The notes under the pieces are model-generated. The model saw only the letters and a program-made list of their open reading frames with translations. It made no database searches and was not told the origin of the DNA. Made by a program: the position numbers and the translations under genes. From an uncultured bacterium (GTDB lineage: Bacteria > Patescibacteriota > Dojkabacteria > SC72), in the NCBI GenBank assembly GCA_903840015.1, contig CAIMEL010000004.1, forward strand, positions 30,671 through 94,670: a DNA stretch of 64,000 nt, given 5' to 3'. Positions 31,034-38,479 of this stretch are shown piece by piece; the first letter of the stretch is position 1, and each line of letters opens with the position of its first letter.

Positions 31034-31708
31034 TTATTTACCTTTAACTATATCCCATCCACTTACTAAACGTCTGTCTCCATATCTTTCTAAACATGTT
31101 GAGATTACAAGATCAGAGTAGGGGACTGTTGAATTTTTAAGAACTTCTGTATCTCTCTCCCATACTGCCTCTAATGTGACATCTCCAACAAGGATTTGCG
31201 TACCCACCAAATTATCTTCAGAATGGTATCTGTCTAGTAGGTCACCCAGAAGAAAAAATCTATTAGCTTTTGTAAAACTGTTATGTGTATGTAATTGGTA
31301 TGTGCCATCTTTTGCAAGAATGATACCTCCCATTACAATGTTACCTTCTGGATCTAGTTGTTTTTGCCATTTGTATTCACCTACTAGAAGATTATCAAGT
31401 TTTTTAGCTGTATTGTCATCATATTCTCCAATGTATGTATATTTGAAATATATTTTTTTGTCTAACCATTTCTTTGGTAAATCTCTGTTCAAAACGGATG
31501 CCTCTAGTACAACAACTTTCTCCTTTTTCATACCAAGGAGTTGTTCTAGAGTTTTTTCTTCTTTAACTTCTACTGGTTTCTCTTCTTGCTGTATTTCTAT
31601 GTTTACAACTTCATATGGTTTTATGGTAGGAATGAATACATATATTGTGAAGAGGATTGTAGTAAGTAAGAAGGTTAATGGGATTATGAGGAAGATTTGT
31701 TTTTTCAT
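31034..31708 (-). CDS. sortase-family transpeptidase (class E/F-like), N-terminal membrane anchor
   Basis: 224 aa; N-terminal TM; conserved His (QLHTHNS), FFLLGDL, catalytic LVISTC (TLxTC) and downstream RRLV Arg. Immediately downstream of a LAETG-bearing substrate gene. Confidence 0.7.
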   Translation of the reverse strand: MKKQIFLIIPLTFLLTTILFTIYVFIPTIKPYEVVNIEIQQEEKPVEVKEEKTLEQLLGMKKEKVVVLEASVLNRDLPKKWLDKKIYFKYTYIGEYDDNTAKKLDNLLVGEYKWQKQLDPEGNIVMGGIILAKDGTYQLHTHNSFTKANRFFLLGDLLDRYHSEDNLVGTQILVGDVTLEAVWERDTEVLKNSTVPYSDLVISTCLERYGDRRLVSGWDIVKGK

Positions 31709-31725
31709 CCCTTGATTATATCTTT

Positions 31726-31763
31726 TAGAAAAGAAAAAAGCAGTACTCTTTCGAATACTGCTT
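31726..31763 (-). terminator. rho-independent terminator between sortase-substrate gene and sortase gene
   Basis: Minus-strand transcript forms AAGCAGTA-loop-TACTGCTT (8-bp stem), immediately followed by UUUUUCUUUUC. Confidence 0.55.
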
Positions 31764-31790
31764 CTTCTTAACTAATATCGAATATATTAA

Positions 31791-32777
31791 TTAAAGCATA
31801 TACTTTTTAACAAATATTGCAGAGGATACTAAGGTACCCAATACTAATATCATTTGTACAAAGTATACTAAGGTTGTATCTGATGCTCCTGTTTCAGCTA
31901 AGACTACATCTGTAGTACCTTTAACTTCACCTTTGTCTTCATCTGTAATACCATCAACCTCACCATCATCATCTTCTTCCTCCTCTTCATCATCGTCAGG
32001 ACATGCTGCGGTTGCAGGACATACTTTATATCCACCTTCACCATCTGCTACCTCTCCTCCAAGGTATCCACATGCGGTTGGACAATCCTGCTCACATGCA
32101 ATCATATCTGTACTACAAGCTACTTCTCTTGTAGTGGAAGATGCTTCGAATCTACAGTTAGTTTTAACAGCATCTCGAATATGCTCTGGTAAATTAGGAT
32201 CTGTATTGAAATCACTCATAGCCCATGAAGGAATGCCTAAACTCACACCAGTAGGCCTATGACACTTATTTGGGTCAGATGATTTAAGACCATATACAAC
32301 ATCGACAGGACCAAACGTTTCTATTTTGTAACAGTCATCAGGTCCACTTTTCTCTTCATATGTATACCCAGCAGGACAAGCATGTGCGTTGATAACTGAT
32401 CTTGTCTGCTTTTTATAGTTGTTTCCACTACATTTTTCATCTTGACAGAGACCTGCATTTTCATCCTGTTGATTGCATTTGTTACTATTACTGCATGAAC
32501 TCCAAGTACTCCAAGAGCTATATACAACAAAATCTTCTGCATAGATCTTATGATCTGCTGTGAAGGATTTTGTTGGGCAACCCTCATCACAAACTTCTAC
32601 AAAGAGAGTTTGAATTTTTGTTCCCTCTGTTGTTCCACACTGAGCAACACATTCAGAAGAATCTCTCCAATCTTCGGAAGGTATTAAAGAAACTCCTTAG
32701 ACACCTAATGGACTTCCTAGGAGGAACAAGAAAAGGAATAAAGGCAGAATTAGAAAGGCTAATAACTTTCCTTTCAT
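31791..32777 (-). CDS. secreted cysteine-rich surface protein with LAETG sortase signal, interrupted by one in-frame TAA (plus-strand 32697-32699). ORF track reports only the 3' part (31791..32246).
   Basis: Minus-strand ATG at 32777 encodes signal peptide MKGKLLAFLILPLFLFLFLLGSPLGV, then TAA. The same frame stays open for ~300 codons: Cys-rich segments (CVAQCGTTEG, CDEGCPTKSF, SSWSTWSSCSNSNKCNQQDENAGLCQDEKCSGNNY, ACEQDCPTACGY), a D/E linker (DDDEEEEEDDDGEVDG), then LAETG + hydrophobic helix + KKYML. Confidence 0.6.
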
Positions 32778-32965
32778 ATATATTAAAATAATAATTTAAA
32801 TTATTATTCCTACGACAAAAATATTAAAAGTTCATTGTCATAGATAACTATGCAAATTATACTCCTTTTCATCATTCATAGTCAACTACTATGAGTCCAA
32901 TTATTCCTTTGTACAAAAGCACATCCAAAGGGTAAGATATAGAAATTAATTAAACCCAATTATCA

Positions 32966-37447: not shown

Positions 37448-38056
37448 ATGGTTAACAAATATCTTAAGAAGTTAAACAAGGTCGTAATTCTTCTTACTCT
37501 TTCCGATATTTTTGCTTGGGGACCATTCTTAATAATAACTGCAATATCTGCCGTATATCTTTCACATAGACTAGGAGAAGATATCGTGCAATTTGTTGGA
37601 ATAGGAACAGCAATATATTTTCTCACACGATCGATATTACAAATGCCAATTGGCCTACTTACTGACAAAATCAAGAGAGACAGAGATGAGATCTTAATCC
37701 TCTCGATAGGTGTTATTCTAATGGGGTTGCCATATGTTTTCTATCCTCAAATCACAGAACCTTGGCATTATTACGTATTGCAGTTTATTTTTGGTATGGG
37801 TGTGTCATTAAACTTAACAAGCTGGAGGAAGCTTTTTGCAACAAATGTAGACAAAGGACGAGAAGGTTTTCAATATGCCGCATACGAAACTGCTATCAGT
37901 ATAGCGACAGCTTTGTTAAGTACTTTGATTGGTAGTATTGCAAGCCTAGGAGATGTATATTTCGATCTAGTTATGATTAGTGCAGGAGTAGTTATGATGT
38001 TTGGTAGTATTTGGATAATCCTCATATACAAAGTAGAGAAAAGGAAAACACAGTAA
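37448..38056 (+). CDS. 6-TM MFS-like membrane protein (half-size)
   Basis: 202 aa; 6 predicted TM helices with MFS-like loop G.L.DK..R...; no partner half detected nearby. Confidence 0.4.
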   Translation: MVNKYLKKLNKVVILLTLSDIFAWGPFLIITAISAVYLSHRLGEDIVQFVGIGTAIYFLTRSILQMPIGLLTDKIKRDRDEILILSIGVILMGLPYVFYPQITEPWHYYVLQFIFGMGVSLNLTSWRKLFATNVDKGREGFQYAAYETAISIATALLSTLIGSIASLGDVYFDLVMISAGVVMMFGSIWIILIYKVEKRKTQ

Positions 38057-38077
38057 TTAAATTTTAAACATATCAAG

Positions 38078-38479
38078 ATGGAAAGAAAAGGAATCATAGG
38101 TCTAGCTGTTTTACTCTTACTTCTAGTTGTAATCGGTGCTGTTGTGTATCAAGTTGTTCTTGGCGATAATACAAAAAAAGATGACGACACATCTCTAGGA
38201 GAACCACATACACTTACTGAAGAAAACTTTGTGTTTGAATATACATATAAAGGGGATAATTTATGGTCATATACAGTAAAAGGTAATTTGCCAACTCCCT
38301 GTTACTCCATCAATACAGATGCTGTCGTTATGGAGAGCTTCCCTGAGCAAGTTATTGTAACATCACGGATTACTCCCCCTGCAAAGGATGTTATGTGTGC
38401 CCAAGTTATACAAGAAGTTAACGAGGTTGGAGAATTTAATGCGAGTGAGAAAGCAACTGTTAGCTTTAATGTTGAATAA
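38078..38479 (+). CDS. membrane-anchored hypothetical protein
   Basis: 133 aa; N-terminal TM (IIGLAVLLLLLVVIGAVVY), then a soluble domain with 2 Cys. Confidence 0.45.
   Translation: MERKGIIGLAVLLLLLVVIGAVVYQVVLGDNTKKDDDTSLGEPHTLTEENFVFEYTYKGDNLWSYTVKGNLPTPCYSINTDAVVMESFPEQVIVTSRITPPAKDVMCAQVIQEVNEVGEFNASEKATVSFNVE

Follow-up and report, generated by a model that had tools for sequence, protein, structure and literature searches.

A probable, very recent nonsense mutation in the signal peptide of a hypervariable, predicted sortase-anchored surface protein of a Dojkabacteria-like bacterium

The locus described here lies in a 64,000-nucleotide stretch of DNA, hereafter the window, and occupies positions 31791-32777 of its minus strand. 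The sequence and its translation revealed 26 codons beginning with an ATG (32777-32775), an in-frame TAA (32699-32697), 301 further open codons and a terminal TAA (31793-31791), so that the disrupted gene comprises 328 codons in total and the internal TAA is codon 27. The start codon and the 26 signal-peptide codons (MKGKLLAFLILPLFLFLFLLGSPLGV) cover 32700-32777, the premature TAA 32697-32699, and the remaining open codons 31794-32696; the latter specify a Cys-rich ectodomain, an acidic linker and a sorting signal, and terminate in ...LAETGASDTTLVYFVQMILVLGTLVSSAIFVKKYML (in the longer form, ...GTTDVVLAETGASDTTLVYFVQMILVLGTLVSSAIFVKKYML). In the list of open reading frames, the first in-frame ATG, GTG or TTG past the internal TAA was the GTG at 32246. 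From this codon runs a 151-aa frame (31791-32246, minus strand), reported by gene callers as a gene of its own, which represents the surviving 3′ part of the disrupted gene and lacks an export signal. The original prediction had described a 328-codon gene split by a TAA after its signal peptide, with no alternative start before GTG 32246, and its coordinates, peptide and lengths were all found to be correct against the sequence, the translation and the list of reading frames.

Upstream of the gene, a sigma-70-type promoter was identified at 32856-32885 (minus strand), with the hexamers TTGACT and TATAAT separated by 18 nt and matching the consensus at 11 of 12 positions; the orthologous loci of two relatives (L001 and L002) have the same two hexamers. 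The leader of about 78 nt between the −10 hexamer and the ATG (32778-32855, minus strand) is AT-rich and highly conserved with L001. On the 3′ side of the gene there is an intrinsic-terminator-like hairpin with a T-run (31734-31767, minus strand), identical in the relative L013. The gene is monocistronic and has its own promoter and its own terminator-like hairpin. Its neighbourhood is conserved: prs lies on one side and is transcribed divergently from it, and on the other side a same-strand gene for a 224-aa protein and a HAD hydrolase gene are followed by a convergent gene for a GH3 glycosidase.

In the protein, a signal peptide is followed by a Cys-rich ectodomain of about 200 residues, one CPTxCGYxGGxVADGxGG unit, an acidic linker, the motif LAETG, a hydrophobic stretch and a tail containing KK. 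The signal peptide starts with MKGK, carries two Lys in its n-region, has a 16-residue hydrophobic core (residues 5-20, mean hydropathy 3.13) and ends in small residues; it was recognised as such from its hydropathy and from its alignment with the V-S-A ends of homologous signal peptides, and the TAA severs it from the rest of the protein. By the same alignment, codon 27 falls at about −2 of the predicted signal-peptidase site. The 301 open codons past the stop contain 18 Cys, with the conserved Cys columns kept. At the C-terminus, the LAETG cell-wall sorting motif (31887-31901, minus strand; LA[ED]TG in most homologues) precedes a hydrophobic membrane-spanning stretch and a positive tail (31794-31886, minus strand; mean hydropathy 2.14, predicted helix), and the whole sorting signal, which reads LAETG, ASDTT, LVYFVQMILVLGTLVSSAIF and VKKYML, is conserved in homologues. 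No Pfam or NCBIfam family matched the surface protein. The AF2 model was mediocre (pLDDT 68, pTM 0.37) and gave no fold match in the PDB. Some other alleles (P0001, P0003, P0007, P0008 and P0012) possess a second CPTxCGYxGGxVxDGxGG unit and, between the two units, an additional module about 80 residues long (CPATNSCSTYRWCYPDEESPTGYLAQAVS...). The window allele and P0002 have neither, and such presence in some alleles and absence in others indicates that the stalk region is modular.

The 224-aa protein is encoded by an intact gene (31034-31708, minus strand) that adjoins the surface-protein gene in every relative seen. No sequence-profile match was obtained for it: none in Pfam, even at E = 10, no relevant one in NCBIfam, and no sequence match in the PDB. 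Its family comprises 54 proteins, the few of which with a source name are all from Dojkabacteria. An AF2 model (pLDDT 80.6, pTM 0.70) predicted an N-terminal membrane helix and a beta-rich domain, and in a Foldseek search of the PDB the top 50 matches of this model were all sortases, spread over classes A-E, with probabilities of 0.9-1.0 and a best E-value of 2.5e-4. H140/H142, C205 (in the motif ISTC) and R213 were invariant across 26 homologues and stand in the order found in sortases. The predicted membrane-anchored, sortase-like fold and this His/Cys/Arg pattern support, at the fold level, a very divergent sortase that would be recognisable by fold alone, a putative Dojkabacteria lineage of the enzyme which current profiles appear to miss. 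The prediction that the disrupted gene encodes a sortase substrate was likewise supported at the fold level, by the LAETG motif, the hydrophobic stretch and the KK tail together with the adjacent sortase-like protein, and we regard the product as a predicted sortase-anchored (LPXTG-type) surface protein.

Class E sortases are reported to prefer LAXTG. The motif of the surface protein, LAETG here and LA[ED]TG in homologues, resembles that of substrates of class E enzymes such as Streptomyces coelicolor SrtE1 and the sortase E of Thermobifida fusca, and sortase E structures (5cuw, 9iok and others) were among the fold matches of the 224-aa protein. Unlike class E sortases, this protein is without a profile match, and its best fold matches were class A and class B enzymes, with TM-scores of only 0.3-0.55. 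Meheust et al. (2019, PMC6744442), dealing with proteins for cell-cell interaction, reported a sortase family in over half of candidate-phyla-radiation genomes, and the pairing of a sortase-like protein with a surface protein at the present locus agrees with this picture. The 224-aa Dojkabacteria family may or may not correspond to the sortase family of that study (fam000526); it escapes the Pfam sortase model (PF04203).

To place codon 27 among homologous genes, the joined 328-residue sequence, with an X at the position of the stop, was used as the query of a homologue search. It returned 18 homologues, many at 100% query coverage, of which one was named Candidatus Dojkabacteria. The 12 close homologues that were aligned all ran uninterrupted across the junction, from an MKGK... 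signal peptide into the Cys-rich domain, and therefore the signal peptide and the downstream frame in the window are not a chance juxtaposition. By exact-sequence look-up, the 151-aa remnant clustered with a 331-aa intact protein, P0020, whose encoding contig is L013. The original prediction had proposed a comparison with orthologues, and in it a sense codon was present, without interruption, in all 12 aligned homologues and in P0020: Lys in the closest homologue (P0001) and in P0020, and other sense residues in the remaining ones.

At the DNA level, the closest intact alleles, L013 and L001, both read AAA at codon 27. In the alignment with L013, no difference from the window was seen over the 120 nt preceding the codon and the 57 nt following it, and within a stretch of 178 nt the mutated base, at window position 32699, was the only one to differ; on the minus strand it is T here and A in the relatives. 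Since both L013 and L001 have AAA and L013 is otherwise identical around the codon, the stop is the derived state. On these alignments, the TAA is best read as having come from a Lys codon, AAA, by a single A-to-T transversion at 32699, and the view that one nucleotide separates an intact 328-codon gene from a fragment is borne out. Relatives are also present in PRJEB14051, a project cited in wastewater-related papers. When the collections of JGI metagenomes and GTDB genomes were scanned with a junction pattern in which the codon was left free, and with a 38-nt pattern that three alleles share unchanged, no match was found, so these collections appear to hold no further alleles of this type.

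Comparison with the relatives L007-L010 uncovered a marked contrast between the gene and its surroundings. The flanks were 93-95.5% identical in DNA, whereas 32093-32746 (minus strand), that is most of the signal peptide and the ectodomain, had no nucleotide similarity: in blastn, similarity ended at 32747, after the first ten codons of the gene, and resumed at 32092. Between the window and L010, amino-acid identity was 95-99% in the flanking genes, 26% in the ectodomain and 85% in the C-terminal part. The hypervariable cassette is bounded by the conserved first ten codons and by the conserved C-terminal anchor. Within it, a mosaic sub-block of 144 nt (codons 84-131; 32385-32528, minus strand) exists in one version in the window and L001 and in another in L013 and L002; outside the block, L013 and the window share about 98% identity. 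This block, common to the window and L001 and replaced in L013 and L002, points to intragenic recombination between allele types. The structure model of the surface protein had low confidence in the same block. The contigs of relatives (L001, L002, L006, L009 and L013-L020) nearly always end inside the surface-protein gene, which suggests that coexisting alleles break the assemblies there; the clean assembly through the TAA allele in the window's population fits a single dominant clone.

Further contigs carrying the TAA were recovered by look-up of the neighbouring 224-aa protein. They come from scaffolds of SAMEA6872876 and SAMEA6872877, an ENA k141 contig (ERZ27313374) and the Logan assembly of run ERR4194174; two more records were without DNA. 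All four contigs (L003-L006) were 100% identical to the window over 1110 nt, the TAA included, and showed 0-5 SNPs against it elsewhere, in prs, murB and the GH3 gene, so they are separate consensus sequences and not copies. They represent at least two samples, and their three contig-naming styles suggest three assembly pipelines. A search of the literature by sample and run accession gave no match. The samples have consecutive accessions and probably belong to one study and site, and it is the libraries and assemblies that are independent, not the populations. An exact protein look-up located the 151-aa product on nine contigs from NCBI, ENA and Logan sources, and in every recovered record, including the two without DNA, the upstream gene had been called with 151 aa. 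The TAA allele is the consensus in every recovered assembly of the window's population.

The age of the lesion was assessed by polarising the differences between the window and L013 with L001 and L002. Outside the mosaic block, the window branch carried the nonsense change, three synonymous changes and two conservative replacements (I158V and D264E). The pairwise dN/dS between the window and L001 was 0.18; in a three-taxon count, the window branch had 9 nonsynonymous and 8 synonymous changes against 10 and 27 on the L001 branch, counts which are too small to interpret. No further stop or frameshift was present in the surface-protein gene, the TAA being its sole disabling lesion, and the promoter, the terminator, the conserved cysteines and the LAETG sorting signal are all intact. 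With only five other lineage changes, none of them disabling, and with these elements intact, the lesion is recent; as far as comparison of sequences can tell, the nonsense mutation is evolutionarily very young and the rest of the gene is without decay. The original prediction had offered a recent nonsense mutation as one explanation, which the ancestral AAA and the short list of other changes uphold, and its argument from the preserved Cys pattern against long-standing pseudogenisation is strengthened by the retained Cys columns, the low dN/dS and the single lesion.

Taking these data together, we consider it probable (about 82%) that the locus holds a real and very recent nonsense mutation in a gene for a signal-peptide- and LAETG-bearing surface protein of a Dojkabacteria-like bacterium of the candidate phyla radiation. 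By this mechanism, the A-to-T change at 32699 would turn Lys codon 27 (AAA) into TAA, translation would end after 26 signal-peptide residues, and the ectodomain would be neither made nor exported, leaving a null allele. The 301 codons downstream would now be untranslated, or at best residually translated, and a protein initiated at the internal GTG (32246) would lack an export signal. The intact sortase gene next door may indicate a continuing need for the substrate, other substrates of the enzyme, or too short a time for decay.

Four other readings were weighed against this nonsense mutation. A sequencing or assembly error, with AAA or another sense codon as the true codon and an intact gene, would account for a difference of a single base, and L013 indeed departs from the window at that base alone within 178 nt; the original prediction had listed it as well. 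It is very unlikely, because four further assemblies, representing at least two samples and three contig-naming styles, have the same TAA, and these contigs are not copies of one sequence, as their 0-5 differences elsewhere attest. In addition, the site lies in no homopolymer or repeat, and none of the six full-length proteins that a single-base reversion would produce was present, by exact look-up, among about 15 billion catalogued proteins. Even less probable is a long-standing, decaying pseudogene: a stop as early as codon 27 would allow nothing useful to be made, but it is the sole disabling lesion, the other lineage-specific changes number five (three synonymous and two conservative), dN/dS against L001 is 0.18, and Cys, LAETG, promoter and terminator have all been retained. 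Functional readthrough or suppression, by a near-cognate Lys, Gln or Tyr tRNA or by a suppressor tRNA encoded elsewhere, would supply a useful though reduced level of the surface protein. Judging from the alignment, the codon sits at about −2 of the predicted cleavage site, in the part that is removed, where any residue would be tolerated; the downstream frame, the sorting signal and the sortase are intact; and a TAA followed by G is rare among the genuine TAA stops of the window (2 of 37, with A or T following in 32 of 37). Against it, the stop is not conserved in orthologues, every homologue having a sense codon, and the downstream sequence is the same as in the AAA allele L013, so that no readthrough-promoting context has evolved. 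TAA is moreover the most used genuine terminator in the window, the four tRNAs found in its 64 kb are all ordinary, with no suppressor among them, and the intact remainder of the gene is equally explained by recency. Basal readthrough of UAA in bacteria amounts to about 1 in 1,000 or less, which also counts against this reading. The suggestion of stop-codon readthrough in the original prediction is therefore unsupported, and we regard it as improbable, only slightly less so than an error. A global reassignment of TAA was ruled out by normal ORF lengths and stop usage: 60 non-overlapping long ORFs of normal length make up 88% of the window, and TAA ends 37 of them, TAG 20 and TGA 3, which makes TGA a rare terminator there. 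Other same-frame ORF pairs parted by one stop proved, when checked against Pfam, to be separate neighbouring genes.

Somewhat less remote than readthrough, but still unlikely, is a standing on/off polymorphism, functionally analogous to phase variation, in which null and intact alleles would be kept side by side in the population and shift in frequency under pressure from phages, hosts or predators. In its favour, close relatives differ in a hypervariable, mosaic ectodomain, the relatives' contigs nearly always break inside the gene as if alleles coexisted, and a near-identical intact allele, L013, exists in another data set. It is opposed by the clean assembly of the locus in the window's population, from which the TAA allele alone was recovered, and by the exact back-mutation or recombination that a return to the intact state would require. 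Nor was any reversible switch found. There is no simple-sequence repeat or homopolymer at codon 27, the site is not flanked by meaningful inverted repeats, and nowhere in the 64-kb window is a segment of the gene duplicated, so that a template repeat of a retroelement is absent as well. Slipped-strand switching, an invertible element and a diversity-generating retroelement are disfavoured on these grounds, the last two being rejected within the window, and the phase-variable antigen that had been considered in the original prediction is left without mechanistic support.

Returning to the recent nonsense mutation, loss of the protein fits a surface molecule under conflict-type selection, since its ectodomain is hypervariable and recombines between close relatives. 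The loss may be selected, for example as an escape from phage or from host defence, or it may be neutral or transient. We tentatively entertain a stronger version, which seems possible but rather doubtful, in which the bacterium is cell-attached, its hypervariable sortase-anchored protein is seen by phages or by the defences of a host bacterium and a clone with the gene switched off has swept the population; in a weaker form of it, residual readthrough within the cleaved signal peptide would keep up a trickle of protein. If such a sweep took place, it would explain the clean assembly here as against the broken contigs in relatives.

A fresh nonsense allele is in itself a routine and known kind of event, and premature stop codons in inlA of Listeria appear to be its closest documented parallel. 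Truncated inlA products are secreted and lack the LPXTG anchor. The passages cited here describe premature stops in the internalin A gene (inlA) of Listeria monocytogenes that are frequent in certain populations and missing from others (PMC12427964, PMC11555985, PMC5131979). As in the present case, these are natural single-base nonsense alleles, and the protein concerned is, according to those passages, sortase-anchored and mediates interaction with other cells. The stops described there give truncated proteins, whereas the stop here lies inside the signal peptide and the ectodomain is expected to be absent; the host also differs, being an uncultivated candidate-phyla-radiation bacterium, and the protein family is unrelated. 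A second likeness is to the hypervariable, recombining surface proteins of Gram-positive bacteria, such as streptococcal PspC/Hic and M proteins, in which, as far as the cited passages describe them, a conserved signal peptide and a C-terminal anchor likewise enclose a divergent, mosaic ectodomain (PMC7814132). Unlike in those proteins, the ectodomain here is small and Cys-rich, and neither its sequence nor its fold is related to theirs.

For annotation, the 151-aa "gene" on nine contigs should be flagged as the tail of a disrupted 328-codon gene. We consider the context to be worth more than the stop codon: a putative, profile-invisible sortase specific to Dojkabacteria is paired with a small, Cys-rich, mosaic LAETG protein. 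The pairing with a sortase, an ectodomain identity of about 26% against 95-99% in the flanks, and the mosaicism make the surface protein a good candidate for a contact or recognition molecule. The natural knock-out would offer a ready-made comparison if the population were followed over time or enriched.

Elsewhere in the window, at 37448-38479 (plus strand), a 202-aa protein was seen whose match to MFS_1 is confined to the first half of that profile (positions 10-175 of 347); a 133-aa ORF without a Pfam match follows it. The same two-gene layout is present in a more distant relative (L011/L012, positions 50-1080), and the arrangement therefore looks conserved and not the result of a recent split.
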